Assembly: GCA_951812955.1 (NCBI GenBank)
Contig: OX638340.1
Location: 3,744,001-3,808,000 of the forward strand
Reading direction: 5' to 3'
Length of the DNA stretch: 64,000 nt
DNA from: an uncultured Gemmatimonadota bacterium
GTDB lineage: Bacteria; JAAXHH01
Below are positions 5,461 through 40,211 of the stretch, piece by piece. Positions within the stretch are counted from its first letter, which is position 1; each line of letters opens with the position of its first letter. Below the pieces are notes generated by a model. The model saw only the letters and a program-made list of their open reading frames with translations. It ran no database searches and was not told the origin of the DNA. Made by a program: the position numbers and the translations under genes.

Positions 5461-6453
5461 TCAACCGGGGAATTCGAACCGCCGGATAAGGTCGAACTCC
5501 GCGGGGTCGAGCGGGGTGCCGTCGGGGCGCATCATGTCGTGCTGCCAGACCGGGGGCGTGGGATCGCCCTTTTTGGATTCCCAGGCCAGGTTGGTCTGCG
5601 TCCTGCCCGCCACGAGTCCCCAGTTGTACCAACCGATCCGGTTTTCCGCGAATACGGGCAGCATTTCCGCAAACGTGTTACCGTGGTGCCGCCGCAGCCA
5701 TTCCGTGCAGATCACGGGTCGATCATACGCGTTGCACCTGGCGAGGCTGGGCCCGATTCTGTCCGCCGCTTCGTAGTAGTGAAACGAGATGATATCGGAC
5801 AACTCGAACAGCAGCGCGGAAAGGTCGTCTTCGAAGGCGTTCCATGTCCACGGCCCCGTGGTAAGCGGTTGCATGGGACCGACGGAACGCGCCCAGGCGA
5901 AGGCGTCCTCGACGAGAGGCTGGCTTCTCAGGTCGTCGTCCGGTTCGTTGTACAGGTCCCACATCAGGACGCGCGGGTCCGATCCGAAGCTGCCGACGAT
6001 GTCCTTTACGTAGCGTTCGAGTTGCGGCCAGGCATCCCGGTCGGCAAGGCGTTCGAACCCAGGACTCGGCACCCACTGGCTGTTGTGTACGCCGGGCACC
6101 GGATCGTCCTGCGGTCCCAGATAGGGGTCGCGGCCCCCGAAGAAGCAGTCGCAGAAGAGAATGACCATGGTGCTGATACCGTGCCGCGACGCGATGGCCA
6201 GGAACCGGTCGAGCCGGTGCTTCAGGCCCTCCGGGTCGTCTTCCCAGACCAGGTACTGCACGAAGATCCGCACGCTGTTGTAACCCGCTCCGGCGGCCCA
6301 TCCCAGCTCCTGGTCGATGGTTGCCGGGTCGAATGTGGGCGCCTGCCACATCTCGGTCATGTTCACGGCCGTGCGCGGGAGGTAGTTGCAGCCACGGATG
6401 ACGCCGGTTTCCCGGTACCATGCGTGGGCTCTTTCGGGGGTCCATGTGTTCAT
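5461..6453 (-). CDS. glycoside hydrolase family 5 (cellulase-like)
   Basis: LYNEPDD (NEP catalytic acid/base motif), GH5-like (beta/alpha)8 sequence features; ATG start at 6453 (ORF track extends to a TTG at 6489); no signal peptide. Confidence 0.75.
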   Translation of the reverse strand: MNTWTPERAHAWYRETGVIRGCNYLPRTAVNMTEMWQAPTFDPATIDQELGWAAGAGYNSVRIFVQYLVWEDDPEGLKHRLDRFLAIASRHGISTMVILFCDCFFGGRDPYLGPQDDPVPGVHNSQWVPSPGFERLADRDAWPQLERYVKDIVGSFGSDPRVLMWDLYNEPDDDLRSQPLVEDAFAWARSVGPMQPLTTGPWTWNAFEDDLSALLFELSDIISFHYYEAADRIGPSLARCNAYDRPVICTEWLRRHHGNTFAEMLPVFAENRIGWYNWGLVAGRTQTNLAWESKKGDPTPPVWQHDMMRPDGTPLDPAEFDLIRRFEFPG

Positions 6454-32187: not shown

Positions 32188-32214
32188 TAACCACGCCGAC
32201 GAAAGGAGCGGAAC

Positions 32215-32991
32215 GTGACAGCATTCGAAGGAAAAGTGGTCATCGTGACAGGGGGCGCCAAAGGTATTGGCGGCGGCATCGTCCGCGCCTTCGCCGGTGA
32301 GGGGGCGCACGTCCTTTGCGCCGATATAGACGACGATGCAGGTGCGGAGATCGTCGCATCCAGCGACCGGATCCGCTACGTCCACGCCGACGTGACCACG
32401 AGCGAAGTATGCCGTTTCCTGGTGGAGACCGCGATGGAAGCCTGGGGAGGCGTCGATATACTCTGCAACAACGTGGGGATACAGCCGACGTCGAGCTATC
32501 TGCCCGCTCACGAAATGTCCGAAGAGCAGTGGGACCGGATCATAAATGTCAACCTGAAGAGCCGATTCCTGATGGTCAAATACTGCGTTCCCGTGATGAA
32601 ACAACGCGGGGGCGGCGTGATCATCAACACGGCGAGCGTTCAGGGACTGCAGTCGGCGAAGGGTATATCAGCCTACGCGGCGAGCAAGGGGGGCGACCTG
32701 TCACTGGTGCGTCAACTTGCCTTGGATTACGCCGAGGACAATATCCGCGTGGTGGCGGTCAACCCGGGCACCATCGAAACGCCCCTCCTGCAGGAGGCCA
32801 TCGATTCGATCGGCGGCGCCGAGGACGAAATCCGGACAGATATGGCTTCCCGGCACGCCGTGAACCGGCTCGGCAGTCCGGAGGATATTGCCAATGCCGT
32901 GCTGTTCCTGGCCAGTGACCGGGCCTCCTTCATCACGGGTGAATACGTGAACGTGGACGGGGGACTGATGGCTCGGGGGGCGTGGGCCTAG
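32215..32991 (+). CDS. SDR family oxidoreductase
   Basis: TGGAKGIG cofactor motif, NNVG, YAASK catalytic triad region. Confidence 0.85.
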   Translation: MTAFEGKVVIVTGGAKGIGGGIVRAFAGEGAHVLCADIDDDAGAEIVASSDRIRYVHADVTTSEVCRFLVETAMEAWGGVDILCNNVGIQPTSSYLPAHEMSEEQWDRIINVNLKSRFLMVKYCVPVMKQRGGGVIINTASVQGLQSAKGISAYAASKGGDLSLVRQLALDYAEDNIRVVAVNPGTIETPLLQEAIDSIGGAEDEIRTDMASRHAVNRLGSPEDIANAVLFLASDRASFITGEYVNVDGGLMARGAWA

Positions 32992-33227
32992 GGGGGTGTA
33001 ACAAAGCTACTGCGGTACATGCTGCTATAGGAGCATTACAAGAAAACTCGACGTGAAGCCGGCACATTCCCCATTCTTGGATCACGTTTGTTTTTTTCAT
33101 TCGAGAAACCCGCAGTGATTCCGACTGAGGAAGAAACCGGTTCAGATGCGGATAGGAAATCGCAATCCGAGCGCTGTGAAAGTTTCGTCAGTACGATGAA
33201 TACATTTTAGCGTAGGAAAGTTAGGAT

Positions 33228-33347
33228 ATGAGCGTCGAGTTGATCGGGATAATCAGTATGGGCGTTGCCCTGGCTGGACTTATTCTGGCGTCTAGGCGGG
33301 ATATCAATCTCCGTCCTGTATCCCTGGAACAGGGCAGGCAGACCTGA
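33228..33347 (+). CDS. possible small hydrophobic peptide (39 aa) in AT-rich island
   Basis: ATG preceded by GGAAAG; MSVELIGIISMGVALAGLILASRRD.. is a single TM-like helix followed by a basic patch; could be a non-coding artefact. Confidence 0.2.
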   Translation: MSVELIGIISMGVALAGLILASRRDINLRPVSLEQGRQT

Positions 33348-33390
33348 GAGAGCGTATGGCAAGACTGGATGAGATGCTGGAAGGACGATT

Positions 33391-34248
33391 CTACACAACA
33401 CGTTGATCAGCTCGTAATTGTCTTTTTGCAGCGATGCGTTTGCGCCTGAGCATCCCAGCCCAATACTGAATCCCGCTATCCTTAGATTCCCTTGCACACC
33501 TCCGCACTGCAGCACGAAGCACTTTATTATTCTTAAGGTTTTCGATGACTTCTAGTCGTGGGCGAACGGGTCCACGACTTAACCACTCCGCTGCGTCCCA
33601 CGCCGGGTCAAGTTTGCTCTCGGCCGATATTGCTTTTCTAGCCTCTTCCTCGATTCGGTGGTTTATGTCTTTTGGGGTCCAACTGAATATGAGCGACAAT
33701 AGAGCACGTATAATCTCACGATAGACATAGCCAATCATTGGTTCGGCAGTGTTGTTACGACCCTCGATACTTTCGTACCTTTTTGCTACAAAGACTTCGG
33801 CTTTGCCATGTTCCTTAAAATAGTCAACAATATTTGTGTTGGGCTGGATGGACGTGACGCTTTCCAGATATTGGATGGTGCTGTCGAAACATCGCTCCAG
33901 TTCATTAAATGCCGTTATGTTGTGCTTTTGAACATCCGCCAACAGTAGATGTAGTTTGTGCCCACGAGAACGAACCTGATTCTCTGACAGGCCGCCGTCT
34001 ATCAGAATCGCCTTTAGGCCCTTCTCGATTGCTTCGTGAGCATTCTTGGTGTCCGCCCTGATCCTTGCCTTTGAGTATGCTGTGGAGAGTAGTCCAATCT
34101 GAAGGAGTCTTTTGAAGAATTCATCTTCAGATTGTGCATCTAAGTTTGCTGCATCAGTCAGGCGACTATGGATATCGCGCGACGGTCTATCCAGTTCATC
34201 GAGGGCATACCTTAGGTCTGCCCATACGTCTTCCTTTTTTAACGACAT
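33391..34248 (-). CDS. hypothetical protein with HEPN-like motif (R-x4-H), AT-rich island
   Basis: 285 aa, Lys/Glu-rich, lower-GC codon usage; segment EAIEKGLKAILIDGG...RSRGHKLHLLL resembles the HEPN Rx4-6H helix; family not verifiable without search. Confidence 0.5.
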   Translation of the reverse strand: MSLKKEDVWADLRYALDELDRPSRDIHSRLTDAANLDAQSEDEFFKRLLQIGLLSTAYSKARIRADTKNAHEAIEKGLKAILIDGGLSENQVRSRGHKLHLLLADVQKHNITAFNELERCFDSTIQYLESVTSIQPNTNIVDYFKEHGKAEVFVAKRYESIEGRNNTAEPMIGYVYREIIRALLSLIFSWTPKDINHRIEEEARKAISAESKLDPAWDAAEWLSRGPVRPRLEVIENLKNNKVLRAAVRRCARESKDSGIQYWAGMLRRKRIAAKRQLRADQRVV

Positions 34249-34421
34249 TTTAATGCCTGCCTTTCAGCACACACAGAACAGATCCACTTGTTGTCAAGAA
34301 TGATCAGACTTTCTACAGTCTTCTCTTTGTCCAATTCGTGGTTTGCAATTGATTTCAGGCTGCGGCAAGGCATACCTGAACAGCCGTGAAACGCCCATTG
34401 GCTAAAATCCGAAATAACCAC
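34239..34421 (-). CDS. small Cys-rich protein (putative zinc-ribbon), translationally coupled to downstream HEPN-like gene
   Basis: 60-aa ORF (GTG start; internal ATG gives 44 aa) with C-x4-C ... C-x2-C; its stop overlaps the next gene's start (ATGTCGTTAA). Confidence 0.35.
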   Translation of the reverse strand: MVISDFSQWAFHGCSGMPCRSLKSIANHELDKEKTVESLIILDNKWICSVCAERQALKCR

Positions 34422-34606
34422 GATTCAATAGCCTGGCCTTATGCCGCACAGAATAGATAGATCCGGATTAGACCCTGGAATCTGACAATGAGTTACTAGT
34501 CAGGGCGGGATTGGTGCTATCGAAACCGCTGCCGATCATTCTTCATCACGGGTGTATTCGTGGACGTTAACAGGGACTTGATGGGATGGTCCGCAAGCAC
34601 GTGGGC

Positions 34607-35368
34607 CTAGGCCGGCTCGTCGCTGTCCTTCGACTTGAAGATGCGCAGGAGCCGGTTGAGGGGGTCGTAGAACTCGCCGACGACCCTTTCCTTCAGGGGA
34701 ATGATGGCGTTGTCCGTGATCGTGATCTCTTCGGGACAGACGTTGGTGCAGCACTTGGTGATGTTGCAGTAGCCGATGCCCTGGTCGTCCTTGAGGTCGC
34801 CGAGGCGGTCCCCGGTGTCGAGGGGATGCATCTCCAGGGCGGCGTTGTGCACCATGAGGCGCGGGCCGATGAACTCCTCGTGCAGGTCATGCTCCCGCAG
34901 GACGTGACAGACGTCCTGGCAAAGAAAGCACTCGATGCACTTGCGGAACTCCTGCACCCGCTCGATATCTTCCTGGTCCATGCGCCAGGTACCGTCCTCG
35001 GCGTCTGGCTTGCGGGGCTTGAAGGGCTTGATCTTTTCCTTCGCGCGGTAATTCCAGGACACGTCGGTGACCAGGTCCCGTATCGTCTTGAAGGCCTTCA
35101 TCGGCTCGATCGTGATGGCCTCGTCCTCGGGCAGGTCGCTCATCCGCGTCATGCACATCAGCTTCGGGTTGCCGTTGACCTCGGCGGAACAGGAGCCGCA
35201 CTTGCCGGCCTTGCAATTCCAGCGGACCGCGAGGTCCGGGGCCGATTCCGCCTGGATCTGGTGCACCGCGTCCAGCACTACCATGCCTTCGTCGATCTCG
35301 GTGGAGTAGTTCTCGAAATCGCCGGTCTCACCATCGCCTCGCCAGATTCGGAAGTTGGCCGTCGCCAT
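34607..35368 (-). CDS. sdhB: succinate dehydrogenase/fumarate reductase iron-sulfur subunit
   Basis: 2Fe-2S (CKAGKCGSC), 4Fe-4S and 3Fe-4S cysteine clusters (CIECFLCQDVC, CTNVCP). Confidence 0.9.
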   Translation of the reverse strand: MATANFRIWRGDGETGDFENYSTEIDEGMVVLDAVHQIQAESAPDLAVRWNCKAGKCGSCSAEVNGNPKLMCMTRMSDLPEDEAITIEPMKAFKTIRDLVTDVSWNYRAKEKIKPFKPRKPDAEDGTWRMDQEDIERVQEFRKCIECFLCQDVCHVLREHDLHEEFIGPRLMVHNAALEMHPLDTGDRLGDLKDDQGIGYCNITKCCTNVCPEEITITDNAIIPLKERVVGEFYDPLNRLLRIFKSKDSDEPA

Positions 35369-37182
35369 TATCTGTTCTCCTCGATGATCGCTGCCAGGTC
35401 CTCCCTGATGGACTGGACCGGAACGCGGTTGATCACCATTTCACCGTCTTCATTCCTGTGCTGGGTAATGTTGATGCTTCCGAATTCCTCGTCCTTGTCC
35501 TCGTAGTCCTCGCGGAAGTGGGCGCCCCGGCTCTCCTTCCTTTCCAGCGCGGCGCGGGCCACCGCCTCCGACACGATCATCAGGAACTTGAGATCCAGCG
35601 CGGTGTGCCATCCGGGATTGTATTCCCGGTTTCCGATGACAGAGACTTTCTGCGCCCGCTGCCTGAGTTCGTCGATCACTTCCAGCGCTTTCTGCATGTC
35701 CCCTTCGTTTCGAACGATGCCGACGAGCTCCTGCATCCGGTCCTGCAGCTCGTACTGGATGTCGAAGGGATTCTCACCGCTGTTCTCCCGGTCGAAGGGC
35801 GCCAGGGTCTCGGCGACGGCCGCTTCGACCTGGCCTTCGTCGATGGTCCCGTTCTCGTTCTCGCGTGCGAACTCCGCCGCGTACCGGCCGGCGCGCTGTC
35901 CGAACACCAGCAGATCGGAAAGGGAGTTGCCACCCAGTCGATTGGCGCCGTGCAGGCCCGCGGCACATTCCCCGGCGGCGAAAAGACCGGGCACGGTAGA
36001 CATCTGCGTGTCGGCGTCCACGAGCACTCCGCCCATCACGTAATGGGTGGTGGGGCCTACTTCCATGGCCTCCTTCGTGATGTCGATGTCGGCCAGTTGC
36101 TTGAACTGGTGATACATGCTGGGCAGCTTGCGCTTGATGTGTTCTTCGGCGTTCGGCAGTTTTTCCTTGATCCAGGCGATGTCGAGGTATACGCCGTCGT
36201 GGGGCGACCCGCGGCCTTCCCTGATTTCCCGGACGATGCACCGCGCCACGTGATCACGCGTCAGCAGTTCCGGCGGACGACGGGCCTCCTTGTCTCCCTG
36301 GGTGTATATCCAGCCCTCTTCGGGACTGTCCGCAGTCTGGTTCTTGTACAGATCGGGGATGTCGTCGAACATGAACCGATTGCCTTCGCTGTTCGTCAGG
36401 GTGCCGCCCTCGCCGCGGACGCCTTCCGTGACCAGGATGCCCCGCACGCTCGGTGGCCAGACCATGCCCGTCGGGTGGAACTGGACGAATTCCATGTCCA
36501 GCAGCTCGGCCCCGGCTTCGTAGGCCAGTCCGTGGCCGTCTCCCGTGTATTCCCAGCTGTTGCTCGTAATCTTGAAGGCCCGGCCGATGCCGCCCGTGGC
36601 CAGGATGACCGCCTTGGCGCGAAAGACCCGAAAACGTCCCCGCTCCCGGTCGTAGCCGAAGGCGCCGACGACCCGGTCTCCGTCCTTCAGCAGGGCCACG
36701 ATGGCGTGTTCCATATACACTTCCATGCCCTGGTGGATCCCGTAATCCTGCAGGGTCCGTATCATCTCCAGGCCGGTACGGTCGCCCACGTGGGCCAGCC
36801 GAGGATACTTGTGCCCCCCGAAGTTGCGCTGCAGTATGCGGCCGTCGTCCGTCCGGTCGAACAGGGCGCCCCAGGCTTCCAGTTCCCGCACGCGGTCCGG
36901 CGCTTCCCTGGCGTGCAGCTCGGCCATGCGCCAGTTGCTCAGGTACTGGCCGCCCCGCATCGTGTCGGCGAAATGCACGCTCCAGCCGTCCCGGTCGTCC
37001 ACGTTGGCCAGCGCCGCCGCGACCCCGCCTTCGGCCATGACCGTATGGGCTTTGCCCAGTAGGGATTTGCACACCAGACCTACTGAAACTCCGGCCGACG
37101 AGGCCTCGATCGCCGCCCGGAGCCCTGCTCCGCCGGCTCCGATCACCAGTACGTCATGTTCATGATGCTGGTATTCCGCCAT
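35368..37182 (-). CDS. sdhA: succinate dehydrogenase/fumarate reductase flavoprotein subunit
   Basis: FAD-binding VLVIGAGGAGLRAA, covalent-FAD His region, active-site motifs; start MAEYQ at 37182 overlaps the sdhC stop (TAATG) and its stop overlaps the sdhB start. Confidence 0.92.
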   Translation of the reverse strand: MAEYQHHEHDVLVIGAGGAGLRAAIEASSAGVSVGLVCKSLLGKAHTVMAEGGVAAALANVDDRDGWSVHFADTMRGGQYLSNWRMAELHAREAPDRVRELEAWGALFDRTDDGRILQRNFGGHKYPRLAHVGDRTGLEMIRTLQDYGIHQGMEVYMEHAIVALLKDGDRVVGAFGYDRERGRFRVFRAKAVILATGGIGRAFKITSNSWEYTGDGHGLAYEAGAELLDMEFVQFHPTGMVWPPSVRGILVTEGVRGEGGTLTNSEGNRFMFDDIPDLYKNQTADSPEEGWIYTQGDKEARRPPELLTRDHVARCIVREIREGRGSPHDGVYLDIAWIKEKLPNAEEHIKRKLPSMYHQFKQLADIDITKEAMEVGPTTHYVMGGVLVDADTQMSTVPGLFAAGECAAGLHGANRLGGNSLSDLLVFGQRAGRYAAEFARENENGTIDEGQVEAAVAETLAPFDRENSGENPFDIQYELQDRMQELVGIVRNEGDMQKALEVIDELRQRAQKVSVIGNREYNPGWHTALDLKFLMIVSEAVARAALERKESRGAHFREDYEDKDEEFGSINITQHRNEDGEMVINRVPVQSIREDLAAIIEENR

Positions 37183-37985
37183 TAAAGGATTCTCCAATCC
37201 GTCCACACGCCCATGGCCACGAGGCGCACGTATATATCCGAGAAACCGACCCATACCAGGCTCATCCAGGCCCAGGTCATGTGTCCCCGGTTCAAGCACG
37301 AGACGCAGTTGTAACCCGCGTGCCGGACGGGCGCTTTGGACAGATGATCCAGGTACCCGCCGATCAGGTGCCGCAGTGAGTGGCAGCCGAACTGGTAGCC
37401 GCCGAGCAGGACGACGTTCAAGGTCAACACAATGGTTCCGACGCCGATACCGAACGTAGTCTCACCCGTCGCCGCGTCCGTGAACCACATGGCCTTCCAT
37501 GCGTCCTGGACCAGGAAGATCCAGATGATGAATACCAGGTAAAGGAAGTATCGGTGAATGTTCTGCATGATCAACGGGAAGGATTGCTCCCCGCGGTACT
37601 TTTTCCTCGGTTCGGAAACGCTGCAGGATGGCGGGTCAGCCCAGAAAGCCTTGTAGTAAGCGCCCCGGTAGTAATAGCAGGTAATCCGGAATCCGGCCGG
37701 AGCCCAAAGGATTATGAAGGCAGGTGAAAACGGCAGCAGGGCCGGCCACCATACGGGTTTGGGACCGAACAGGGCATGGGACGAACTGCCGAAAATCTCT
37801 GGAGAATAAAAGGGCGACAGGTAGGGGCCCCAGGCGTAGAACTCACCCTGGAAGGCCGCCCAGGTTGAGTAGACGACAAAGGCGGAGAATACGCCGAATG
37901 TCAGTAATTGCTGCGCCCACCATGCGTCTCTGCGTTGCGTCTGACCAAAACCGCTCGTCTTCAGCGAAACACCGGTTGTCGACAT
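37182..37985 (-). CDS. sdhC: succinate dehydrogenase cytochrome b subunit, b558 family
   Basis: 267 aa, five TM, conserved His heme ligands; Bacteroidetes/Bacillus-type single large anchor subunit. Confidence 0.85.
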   Translation of the reverse strand: MSTTGVSLKTSGFGQTQRRDAWWAQQLLTFGVFSAFVVYSTWAAFQGEFYAWGPYLSPFYSPEIFGSSSHALFGPKPVWWPALLPFSPAFIILWAPAGFRITCYYYRGAYYKAFWADPPSCSVSEPRKKYRGEQSFPLIMQNIHRYFLYLVFIIWIFLVQDAWKAMWFTDAATGETTFGIGVGTIVLTLNVVLLGGYQFGCHSLRHLIGGYLDHLSKAPVRHAGYNCVSCLNRGHMTWAWMSLVWVGFSDIYVRLVAMGVWTDWRIL

Positions 37986-38096
37986 AGGCTATCCTCTTGA
38001 ATCCAGCGTACCGAACAACTGAATTTCACGGACAAAACACATTAGCGCAAAATAGACCGGCGAAGGCCGCAATGCAATAGAAAAATAACCTCGCTT

Positions 38097-40211
38097 TTGC
38101 CATGGTTTCGGCATGCTGCCGTCCGCAACAACTGGGATAAAACAATGGCCGGATCAGCCTGTCGGGCAGTATATTCAAACCCTGTTTCGTTACGCGACGC
38201 CGGAACGCCCGGTTCAGTCATGCCGGGCAGACAAGGAAGCCGATCCCACCCGATGCCAGCCGACTCGTCACAGGACGCACGCTCCCCGCGCAGCCCGACC
38301 GGCATCACCCCCCGCGTACTGATCCTGGGGGGCGTTCTGGCCGTATTCATCGCGATCTGGACGCCCCACACCAATTACGTGATGCATGGCCCGAGGCTCA
38401 CCCTGAGCCATATCTCTATCGCGGCCCTGGTTTCCTTTCTCATGGTGATCTTCTGTATGCAGATCCCCCTTCGCAGGTGGCGGCCCGCGCAGGCGTTCTC
38501 CGCGAGCGAACTGGCCGTGCTGTTCGTCTTCTGTCTCGTTTCGTCGACAATTCCGGGCAAGGCTTTCGTGGACTACTTTATCGGAATCCTCGCCTCCCCT
38601 TACTATTACGTTACGCCGGAGAACCGGTGGGCGGATACCTTCTTTCCCCACCTGCCCGGATGGCTGGTCGTCCGGGACGACCTGGGGGCCGCGACGGCGT
38701 TCTACGAAGGCGCCGGCCAGAGCATCATCCTGTGGGTCGAATGGATCGTTCCCCTGTTCTGGTGGATGTGCATGCTGGCGGCGCTGTTCGTGGTCATGGC
38801 CTGCATTTCGGTGATCTTCCGCAAGCAGTGGGTCGAGCACGAGCGGTTGTCTTTTCCCGCGGTCCAGATACCCTCGATGCTCATCAGGGAGACGACCCGG
38901 GGCGGACTGATTCCGGGATTAGTGACGAACCGGTACTTCCAGGTGGGATTCGGGGTCACCTTCGCCCTGCTGGCGTGGAACTGCCTCGCCTATTTCGGCA
39001 CATTCCCCGCCATTCCCGTCGGCGCCGCTTTTAGGACGGAGATTCAACTGGCGCCTTCCGTTCCACCGACCCAGGTGCAGTTCAACCTCTTTATGATGTG
39101 CTTCGCCTATTTCGCCGACTTGAAGGTGTTGTTCAGCATCTGGTTTTTTCACCTGCTCGCCCTGCTGGAGATCAGTCTGCTCAACCAGTTGGGCGTATCG
39201 GCGTCCGGCGTGGCGGGTGGCTCGCAGTTCATCGTGAAGACGGAGCACTTCGGCGGGTTCTGGGTATTCGTACTGTGGGGCATATGGATCGGCAGAAACC
39301 ACCTGAAGGCGGTCTGGCGCAAGGCCCTGGGAAGCGCACCGGAGGTCGACGACTCCATGGAACTGCTGTCCTATCGCACGGCTGTGGGGGGACTGGCCGC
39401 CGGCCTGTGCTACCTGCTGTTCTGGCTTAACAGCATGGGTATGTCGGTCGATGTGGCCGTCCTCTTCCTCCTGATCACGCTCGCGCTTTATGTGGGCGTC
39501 ACCCGCATCGTCGCAGAGACGGGGCTCGTTTTCCTCGATCTACCGGTCAACTCGAACGAAATGACGGTGGCCGTCATCGGTTCGAGCAACCTGTCGCCTT
39601 CGAACCTCACATCCCTCGGACTGACCCACGCCATCTCCCACAACCACCGGGGCATCGGCCTGTCTTCGCTGATTCACGGCGTGAAGGCCTCCGAAGGCTT
39701 CGCCCGGTCGAGAAAAGGACTGTTCGCCGCGGTGTGCGTATTGCTTGCGCTCACGTTCATCGTCACGAACGGCTACACGATATACGCCGGGGCGACCGGT
39801 ACCGGGGCCCATGATTTCGCCCCGCTTCGGGCCGATAACTTCTACGACCAGCTGGCCACCTGGTTCAACAATCCCTACACCCTGTCCTACGAGGAAATCT
39901 ATTTCCTGCTCCTGGGTGCTGTCATTACCTGCGGTCTCCTGTTCATGCAGTACCATTTCGCCGGGTGGCCCTTCCATCCCATCGGATACATCGTGGCCTA
40001 CGCCGACATCATCAACTTCGAAATCACGTCGATCTTCATGATCTGGCTGATCAAGGTGCTGCTGCTGAGGCTGGGCGGGTTCGACATGTACCGGAGGATG
40101 CAGCCTGCCGTGATCGGCGTGCTGCTGGGCTACGCGGCGGGGGTGACCCTGTCTCTTGCCGTCGATGTCATCTGGTTCCCCGGCCAGGGGCACAACGTGC
40201 ACAACTGGTAG
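38097..40211 (+). CDS. polytopic membrane protein of unknown function (paralog A; >=12 TM)
   Basis: Shares with the convergent neighbour the blocks SP(E/Y)N(R/Q)W, IPLFWWM, VIFRKQWVEHERL(S/R)FP, NPIG(Y/F) and overall collinear hydrophobicity; true start uncertain (several in-frame Met). Confidence 0.7.
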   Translation: MPWFRHAAVRNNWDKTMAGSACRAVYSNPVSLRDAGTPGSVMPGRQGSRSHPMPADSSQDARSPRSPTGITPRVLILGGVLAVFIAIWTPHTNYVMHGPRLTLSHISIAALVSFLMVIFCMQIPLRRWRPAQAFSASELAVLFVFCLVSSTIPGKAFVDYFIGILASPYYYVTPENRWADTFFPHLPGWLVVRDDLGAATAFYEGAGQSIILWVEWIVPLFWWMCMLAALFVVMACISVIFRKQWVEHERLSFPAVQIPSMLIRETTRGGLIPGLVTNRYFQVGFGVTFALLAWNCLAYFGTFPAIPVGAAFRTEIQLAPSVPPTQVQFNLFMMCFAYFADLKVLFSIWFFHLLALLEISLLNQLGVSASGVAGGSQFIVKTEHFGGFWVFVLWGIWIGRNHLKAVWRKALGSAPEVDDSMELLSYRTAVGGLAAGLCYLLFWLNSMGMSVDVAVLFLLITLALYVGVTRIVAETGLVFLDLPVNSNEMTVAVIGSSNLSPSNLTSLGLTHAISHNHRGIGLSSLIHGVKASEGFARSRKGLFAAVCVLLALTFIVTNGYTIYAGATGTGAHDFAPLRADNFYDQLATWFNNPYTLSYEEIYFLLLGAVITCGLLFMQYHFAGWPFHPIGYIVAYADIINFEITSIFMIWLIKVLLLRLGGFDMYRRMQPAVIGVLLGYAAGVTLSLAVDVIWFPGQGHNVHNW

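Follow-up and report, generated by a model that had tools for sequence, protein, structure and literature searches.

The stretch analysed here, referred to as the window, comprises 64,000 nucleotides of the genome of an uncultured Gemmatimonadota bacterium (contig OX638340.1, positions 3,744,001 to 3,808,000), and we focus on an islet of low guanine-plus-cytosine (GC) content at 32992-34606 that carries, on the minus strand, the gene for a 285-aa protein with a HEPN fold. The islet has a GC content of 0.482, compared with a mean of 0.612 (standard deviation 0.020, minimum 0.568) for all other 1.6-kb segments of the window (z = -6.6). Values of 0.45-0.51 extend across about 32950-34600 between flanks of 0.58-0.69, and this is the sole kilobase-scale dip below 0.55; a minor dip, to 0.51-0.54, is seen at 37750-38200, beside the 5' end of the sdh operon. 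The AT-richer island of the original prediction, which was made from the sequence alone, is therefore real, and both minus-strand open reading frames (ORFs) that it placed there, of 285 and 60 aa, are present. Its location between a short-chain dehydrogenase/reductase (SDR) gene and the sdh operon is also correct: on the left is a cyclase-family gene followed, after a gap of only 27 bp (32188-32214), by the SDR gene (32215-32991, plus strand), and on the right are sdhB/sdhA (34607-37299) and then sdhC, all on the minus strand. The two ORFs had been described as rich in lysine, asparagine and isoleucine, and these residues do make up 18.9% of the 285-aa protein; neighbouring proteins have 8-17%, but the contrast is modest and the protein only weakly distinct because SdhB already reaches 17.4%. 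As predicted, there are no tRNA genes within the 64-kb window and no integrase ORF in the islet. No RNA element was found between 32800 and 34800 in Rfam (E <= 1), and a scan for promoters and terminators gave only chance-level results, with no site on the strand of the 285-aa gene.

To place the islet in its lineage, we used relatives of the host found through orthologues of the SDR protein (91-94% identical), with backbones that are 82-89% identical; the 90%-identity cluster of the SDR protein carries the names of Gemmatimonadota metagenome-assembled genomes (MAGs). All of the relatives share a backbone of cyclase, SDR and convergent sdhB-sdhA-sdhC genes. The features of the insert and of the ORF that it interrupts are as follows.

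33385-34430, no strand: window-specific insert of ~1,046 bp, GC 0.468, defined by comparison with relatives
33391-34248, minus strand: gene for the 285-aa HEPN-fold protein, with the HEPN core at roughly residues 41-215
34249-34318, minus strand: conserved 5' leader, of which 16 nt are common to all copies and up to 70 nt are shared with one subfamily (blastn and leader alignment)
33386-33390, minus strand: 3' trailer remnant AATCG, from comparison of 3' flanks
34319-34430, no strand: part of the insert upstream of the leader, with a blastn match in strain L042 and at no other locus
33385-33391, plus strand: left copy of a 7-bp direct repeat, ACGATTC, overlapping the stop codon of the 285-aa gene
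34420-34426, plus strand: right copy of ACGATTC, 7 nt ahead of the resumed resident ORF sequence
33228-33384, plus strand: 5' portion of a resident ORF for a small membrane protein (MSVELIGIIS...); the intact versions in L023, L026 and L040 encode 65-67 aa and are 75-77% identical to it
34431-34471, plus strand: displaced 3' end of the resident small ORF (...CCGGATTAG), from local alignment to L023 and L026

By blastn, the window is collinear with relative L023 from 32223 to 33384, through the SDR gene and a spacer into the small ORF, and homology to L023 restarts exactly at the sdhB stop codon at 34607. Between these points, 34431-34471 aligns locally with the 3' end of the small ORF in L023 (6186-6240) and L026 (6185-6242). 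Because the collinearity of the relatives ends at 33384 and the 3' end of the small ORF lies at 34431-34471, the recent insert corresponds only to about 33385-34430. It is missing from the close relatives L023, L024, L026, L040 and L041, and is carried at 98-100% identity by L042, a diverged strain; the window and L042 are the compared host strains that have the HEPN gene at this site. The interrupted ORF encodes a small single-pass membrane protein of 65-67 aa (MSVELIGIISVG...LEQG...RLEGIL...) with no Pfam family match, and is resident between the SDR gene and sdhB in this Gemmatimonadota lineage, in tandem in L023 (6027-6224 and 6288-6491; the stop codon overlaps that of sdhB) and at 6085-6282 in L040. 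In the window, it has a 1-nt deletion near 33335 that shifts the frame, and is then cut by the insert. A single-gene foreign insert has destroyed this resident 65-aa membrane-protein ORF, and the 39-aa single-transmembrane ORF that the original prediction took for a convergent gene is nothing other than its truncated, frameshifted 5' part. The ACGATTC repeat at the junctions does not duplicate the target sequence of the relatives, and could have arisen by chance, with a likelihood of roughly a few per cent by our own estimate for the positions that would qualify.

In the 285-aa protein, the HEPN core is preceded by additional helices and followed by ~70-100 residues that are also helical. Foldseek comparison of the whole chain with the Protein Data Bank (PDB) gave no significant match, and a profile search of PDB sequences also gave nothing significant. 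The HEPN core itself matches the HEPN toxins of HEPN-MNT (minimal nucleotidyltransferase) pairs (7ae2 and 5yep, score 8.8; 8xdj, 7.9), as well as TTHA0636, HI0074, 4nqf, YutE, AF0298 and TT1696, each aligned over 111-122 residues, with lower scores for the HEPN domain of AbiA (7.0) and for AbiV (5.6). Because the whole-chain search is empty, the remaining ~165 residues have no solved counterpart. An N-terminal helix at residues 6-43 (EDVWADLRYALDELER...) gave an insignificant profile match (E 0.3) to gp5.9, the phage T7 inhibitor of RecBCD (8b1r, 9gmb), which is probably a chance likeness between acidic helices.

HEPN domains are defined by a four-helix up-down fold and an Rx4-6H motif, often with an upstream Ex3[KR] (Anantharaman et al. 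2013, PMC3710099). The 285-aa protein has a four-helical up-down bundle built from two alpha-hairpins, so that the structural comparison finds the HEPN bundle that had been proposed, and E75-x3-K79 is invariant across the family alignment, down to 21% identity. At the same depth, nine charged or aromatic residues are invariant: H71, E75, K79 and H97 in the core, and Y158, E178, R198, E200 and W222 in the extension. The Rx4-6H motif that had been proposed for a catalytic helix is seen only in a variant form. The string on which it was based, EAIEKGLKAILIDGG...RSRGHKLHLLL, is present, but the pair conserved in the close family is R93-x3-H97 (R-S-R-G-H), with R93 kept in at least 90% of close members, and H100, which would give Rx6H, is variable. 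One subgroup has a two-residue insertion that gives Rx5H (VRRGREGH), and distant members have no arginine at the R93 position (TFGH, STGH, KNTH, DHTH) and keep H97. Precedent exists, as some HEPN-T families lose the arginine but keep the histidine and others use a second histidine N-terminal to the motif (PMC3710099).

Profile comparisons are similarly mixed. In Pfam, the 285-aa protein matches PF05168 at 16.8 bits (E 0.0079, residues 69-122), below the gathering threshold of 22 bits; the same model is matched by 42 of 42 aligned family members at E <= 0.1 (best 4.6e-5), and two distant relatives exceed the threshold (P0277, 24.3 bits; P0287, 22.9 bits). There is no match to PF01934, and the Abi_2 and AbiV models of Pfam and PADLOC, the first of which had been suggested as a check, have no sequence-level match to the protein. 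There are 196 homologues at E <= 1e-3, all 61-100% identical and full length, and when 1.84 billion cluster representatives were searched exhaustively with a profile, only 22 reached E <= 1e-30 and only 71 reached E <= 1e-3. By these searches the family is very small and undescribed, and none of Pfam, NCBIfam, PADLOC and PHROGs has a family for it. The gene is intact at every locus examined, and the median ratio of nonsynonymous to synonymous substitution rates (dN/dS) is 0.27 (120 pairs, range 0.13-0.44), which shows purifying selection. The distant homologues P0272 (386 aa) and P0275, P0277 and P0287 (about 440-455 aa) match only profile residues ~56-279 or ~68-215; the N terminus of P0272 carries a Cys/Lys-rich repeat (CKDCKNC...) some 100 residues long, and the ~450-aa proteins share a conserved C-terminal domain with no Pfam match.

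Using an alignment-based profile to scan GTDB representatives, one genome per species, we found the 285-aa gene in 15 MAGs of Chloroflexota (Dehalococcoidia, Caldilineaceae), Latescibacterota, Vicinamibacterales (Acidobacteriota), Alphaproteobacteria and Gammaproteobacteria, so that with the Gemmatimonadota host it spans at least six phyla; each genome has a single copy. Most copies are 80-90% identical in DNA to that of the window (dS about 0.26-0.6). The gene retains a GC content of about 0.50 (0.44-0.57 at third codon positions) in hosts with flanks of 0.55-0.71, and amelioration is seen only in locus L017. With close host relatives lacking the gene and DNA copies this similar in other phyla, the horizontal acquisition that had been proposed is well supported. 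Across more than 20 contexts, homology between copies ends 16-70 nt 5' of the start codon and about 3-20 nt past the stop, and the closest foreign copies (90% DNA identity, L027-L032) have nothing in common beyond -16 and +3. The leader contains a Shine-Dalgarno-like sequence, AAAGGCAGG, at about 34256-34264, 8-16 nt ahead of the ATG, and most other copies end in a ~17-nt trailer, TAG AATTCGATATAATCGCC, of which AATCG is all that is left in the window. When a weight matrix built from the trailer was applied to positions -300 to -17 of 19 loci and to control regions, there was no enrichment (p = 0.34), and the trailer motif is thus not repeated on the 5' side. These boundaries indicate that the gene circulates as a bare single-gene unit of leader, ORF and ~17-nt trailer. 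In JGI metagenomes, it is present in 4 of 241 million records. One copy, L015 (MPML01), is from the microbiome of the sponge Aplysina aerophoba (Slaby et al. 2017, PMC5649159), and lateral transfer of defence genes (restriction-modification and Cas) among sponge-symbiont phyla has been described (Robbins et al. 2021, PMC8163846).

The second ORF of the original prediction was a Cys-rich partner, translationally coupled to the larger gene.

34239-34421, minus strand: 60-aa Cys-rich ORF with a GTG start (ORF list), lying within the leader and the unshared part of the insert

This ORF does overlap the start of the 285-aa gene, by ATGTCGTTAA, and does contain C-x4-C and C-x2-C, but coupling is not supported, as its frame is not conserved and the 285-aa gene has its own Shine-Dalgarno-like site. 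There is no homologue among 5.8 billion clustered proteins, and Pfam and PADLOC matches are all below threshold. Its exact sequence is missing from a collection of 15 billion proteins that does hold the 285-aa, 39-aa and SDR products of the same contig, and since only these other products are there, the ORF was never predicted by the gene caller. Among 16 loci with homologues, this frame is closed 2-3 codons before the overlap at 8 and has no start codon at 3; the ORFs at the other 5, 20-141 aa in length, have in common only their final ~12 residues, CSVCAERQALKCR, and this tail comes from the conserved leader of the 285-aa gene. The codons for M-S-L-N/K at the start of that gene are conserved, and the overlapping stop codon follows from them. 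The ORF is identical and intact in L042, but this is uninformative because the surrounding 166 nt have no substitution at all. It is thus spurious, a by-product of the real gene, and the two-gene toxin or abortive-infection module that had been proposed falls with it. As a caution for annotation, an ORF that overlaps a real start by ATGnnnnTAA and has cysteine pairs can be purely a by-product.

The remainder of the islet has a different history, and contains the following additional features.

32928-32992, plus strand: flanking imperfect direct repeat, copy 1, the 3' end of the functional SDR gene (repeat search)
34541-34611, plus strand: flanking repeat, copy 2, a diverged in-frame remnant of an SDR 3' end, 52/64 identical
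32992-33227, no strand: older low-GC spacer, common to L023-L026, with no evident ORF

No obvious direct repeats had been expected to flank the islet, and this proved wrong. The longest direct repeat of the region brackets it (32919-32971 and 34532-34584; 53 nt, 75%) and corresponds to an imperfect repeat of the ~65-nt SDR 3' end with exact 13-mer and 12-mer cores; the exact 12-mer CGTGGGCCTAGG, at 32981-32992 and 34600-34611, forms both edges of the whole islet. Copy 2 encodes a diverged in-frame SDR C-terminus (FITGVFVDVNRDLMGWSASTWA*) and abuts and overlaps the sdhB stop codon inside a palindrome, GGCCTAGGCC, in which the SDR and sdhB stop codons are both embedded. Recombination may favour these edges, and in L023 CTAGG is found on either side of the inserted block. 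Repeats derived from a target gene would be expected at the attL and attR ends of an element integrated at the 3' end of a gene, together with a site-specific recombinase; here there is no recombinase gene, and the repeat brackets the older islet and not the HEPN insert. Copy 2 is present in L042 and absent in L023, L040 and L035; the remnant at 34541-34611 belongs to an older event at the same site. Likewise, about 390 bp of the islet (32992-33384) is older resident DNA common to the relatives. Because the remnant and spacer are older than the HEPN insert, the islet was built up by at least two events at different times and is not one acquired island, even if the insert at 33385-34430 is itself foreign as proposed, and the more general caution is that an AT-rich island can be a pile of insertions differing in age.

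The SDR-sdhB gap differs among the relatives in a manner showing that it is an insertion and recombination hotspot with strain-specific, small, low-GC cargo. In the more distant L035 (SDR 83% identical), it is only a 100-bp AT-rich spacer; in L023, L024 and L026, it is about 700 bp with two tandem small membrane ORFs; and in L040 and L041, about 1.56 kb of other low-GC DNA accompanies one intact small membrane ORF. The cargo in L040 (5034-5770, GC 0.463; also in L041) has an apparently frameshifted ORF of ~240 aa, ending ...QWRSNQYLADIRNLCDHNREDEP..., that has no Pfam match and contains ADIRNLCDH, a canonical RNxxxH (Rx4H) HEPN-like motif, and it may be a second, unrelated HEPN-type pseudogene. 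The cyclase-SDR gap, a few hundred bp away, is a second variable site with defence cargo: L023 (1646-5000), L024 and L026 have a ~3.3-kb insertion there with a 368-aa ORF and a 285-aa AbiEii-like nucleotidyltransferase (PF08843, weak), and L024 and L026 have a Mrr_cat restriction-type gene.

Comparison of the window with L042 in 200-bp bins provides the relative age of the insert. The backbone is 80-93% identical, 33400-34600 is 98-100% identical and 34600-35600 is 95-97.5% identical, and at the left junction identity falls sharply, to 88% and then 75%; the spacer at 32992-33227 is hypervariable, with 73% identity compared with ~90% for the backbone and 98-100% for the adjacent insert. A tract of 98-100% identity on an 80-93% backbone indicates that the insert is younger than the split between the two strains, and the pattern suggests that it passed between strains along with the sdhB-side flank, as homologous recombination would give.

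We also examined the genes surrounding the homologues. All-against-all BLASTP of neighbouring ORFs at 17 loci revealed no conserved neighbour, the recurrent ones being Fic (4 of 17 loci) and MNT genes (3 of 17, at variable distance). In line with the toxin- or defence-like character that had been proposed, the 285-aa gene is often found among defence or toxin-antitoxin genes, including Vsr/Dcm, FRG, Fic/SoFic, NERD, PIN, MNT/HepT, AbiEii-type AAA, AriA, HEC-01, DrmMI and type IIG restriction-modification genes. Other neighbours are three large serine recombinases and ordinary metabolic genes. In a Latescibacterota MAG (L021), a 99-aa MNT-type gene (5661-5960) ends 40 nt upstream of the 285-aa gene and is co-oriented with it, and in the related L028 the two genes are a 2.9-kb insertion apart; the arrangement could reflect a HEPN-MNT-like pairing peculiar to this lineage, or could be coincidental.

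In bacterial immunity and toxin-antitoxin systems, few effectors are as common as HEPN RNases, and a newly found HEPN family often proves to be a new defence system. The interpretation we prefer, and consider moderately probable as a whole, is that the insert is a single-gene foreign unit encoding a stand-alone HEPN RNase-type defence or toxin effector without an antitoxin, a role that we infer; its structural and evolutionary part, taken without the RNase or defence role, we hold with high confidence. In this reading, foreign DNA of ~1.05 kb inserted into the resident 65-aa ORF at the SDR-sdhB hotspot, and such units usually land in variable islets with many defence and toxin-antitoxin genes and spread between strains of one species by homologous recombination through the flanks. 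The core is a HEPN of the PF05168/HEPN-T type, with Ex3K (E75, K79) and H97 preceded by R93/R95, and the protein would be a metal-independent HEPN RNase with a variant active site formed by H97 with E75/K79 and perhaps H71 and R93/R95 or R198. Because no antitoxin gene travels with the 285-aa gene, we propose self-control, in which either the accessory helices or the oligomeric state of the protein would keep it inactive until a trigger such as phage infection leads to RNA cleavage and an abortive-infection-type defence.

Several observations weigh against this interpretation. A toxic RNase with no cognate antitoxin requires self-control. The Rx3H spacing is outside the canonical Rx4-6H, with R93 lost in distant members, and some proteins of the PF05168 clade are thought to be binding domains without catalytic activity (PMC3710099). 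The protein has no match in PADLOC-DB v2.0.0 (E <= 1), NCBIfam or PHROGs. In the host lineage, the copies of the gene in the window and in L042 are separated by 7 nonsynonymous and 3 synonymous changes, which are too few to judge and give no sign of strong constraint. The route of mobility has left little trace, as we found no terminal inverted or direct repeats of the unit and no integrase or tRNA nearby, and no relative of the gene among IMG/VR viral contigs, PLSDB plasmids or GenBank phages. The family is marine and partly sponge-associated, with a sponge source established for L015 and elsewhere inferred from record names.

The main rival, which we regard as a serious but clearly less probable explanation, is that the protein is non-catalytic, acting as a nucleotide, RNA or ligand binder, an adaptor, a sensor or an anti-defence factor. 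The non-canonical Rx3H and the arginine that distant relatives do not keep are in line with this, as is the best Pfam match being PF05168, a clade that includes sacsin-type and nucleotidyltransferase-associated binding domains, and so are the lack of an accompanying antitoxin and the expectation that a lone constitutive RNase would transfer poorly across phyla. However, the nine invariant charged and aromatic residues, including H71, E75, K79 and H97, resemble an active site more than a binding surface, and the surroundings are typical for defence effectors.

Another possibility is that in this host the gene is carried along neutrally, serves no function at present and is decaying like the neighbouring small ORF. 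The 7 nonsynonymous and 3 synonymous differences to L042, the clipped 3' trailer and the lack of a promoter-like site on the gene strand could all be read in this way, but the ORF is full length, with the family-invariant residues intact and a family dN/dS of 0.27, and the high-identity tract in common with L042 suggests recent spread; we consider it improbable. Somewhat more improbable still is a selfish single-gene element whose own product promotes its transfer or insertion, in a homing-like manner. Such an element would account for homology stopping at the ends of the ORF in each genome, a limit seen even at 90% identity, and the 7-bp direct repeat at the window junctions and the lack of a recognisable recombinase consistently nearby would fit; but there is one copy per genome, the 5' boundary varies from -16 to -70 and there are no terminal repeats, so that it does not resemble an insertion sequence or transposon, the HEPN fold is unlike those of known transposases, recombinases and homing endonucleases, and the 7-bp repeat is not a duplicated target sequence of the relatives. 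The least credible explanation is a two-gene module, in which a Cys-rich, zinc-binding 60-aa partner or antitoxin is coupled to the HEPN toxin with the 39-aa transmembrane ORF as a third element, for although the ATGTCGTTAA overlap and cysteine pairs are there and the 60-aa ORF is intact, if uninformatively, in L042, that ORF has no homologue, was never called and is closed in 8 of 16 loci, and the transmembrane ORF is a disrupted resident gene.

The preferred interpretation, a stand-alone HEPN effector, can be compared with several known systems. HEPN-T/PF05168 proteins (TTHA0636, 1wwp; AF0298, 2hsb; HI0074, 1jog; sacsin HEPN, 3o10) are about 120-140 aa, so that the 285-aa protein is about twice as long; it adds the N-terminal helices and a conserved C-terminal region (Y158, E178, R198, E200, W222), matches PF05168 below threshold, and in most loci is neither paired nor fused with a minimal nucleotidyltransferase. 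The HepT toxins of HEPN-MNT type II/VII pairs (SO_3166, 5yep; Aphanizomenon HEPN, 7ae2; 8xdj) have an MNT partner, whereas the 285-aa gene moves alone, with MNT absent in the window and at most loci; HepT also has RX4HXY with an AMPylated tyrosine and belongs to PF01934, whereas the 285-aa protein has R-S-R-G-H-K-L-H, with no tyrosine at H+2 and no PF01934 match. Compared with single-protein HEPN effectors of abortive infection or defence (AbiV, 9bj5; Abi2/AbiD/AbiF; the HEPN domain of AbiA, 8oz7), the 285-aa protein has no Abi_2 or AbiV sequence match, and its gene was not found on phages or plasmids. The likeness to Csm6/Csx1 (8jbc, 6tug) is in fold only, as there is no CARF domain or CRISPR context and the motif differs. 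Defence genes transferred among sponge symbionts (PMC8163846, PMC5649159) are similar in their high DNA identity across phyla and in the setting among defence genes, and L015 is itself from Aplysina aerophoba; those studies report restriction-modification and Cas genes and other enriched functions, and we found no description of the 285-aa family.

A HEPN-domain effector in a variable islet is familiar; what is new is the undescribed family, the non-canonical motif, the extended architecture, the lone travel and the high DNA identity across phyla. A bolder proposal, to which we give only a small chance, is that this is a new minimal mobile defence gene, in which leader, ORF and trailer would move between phyla in host-associated (sponge) communities with no recombinase, terminal repeats or trace of a vector, and the product would be a self-controlled HEPN enzyme with a rearranged site of H71/E75/K79/H97 and R198/E200 from the C-terminal extension. 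If the protein is an active RNase, the family would illustrate how a toxin travelling alone can pass safely between genomes, and would also mark very recent gene exchange across phyla within a host-associated microbiome.

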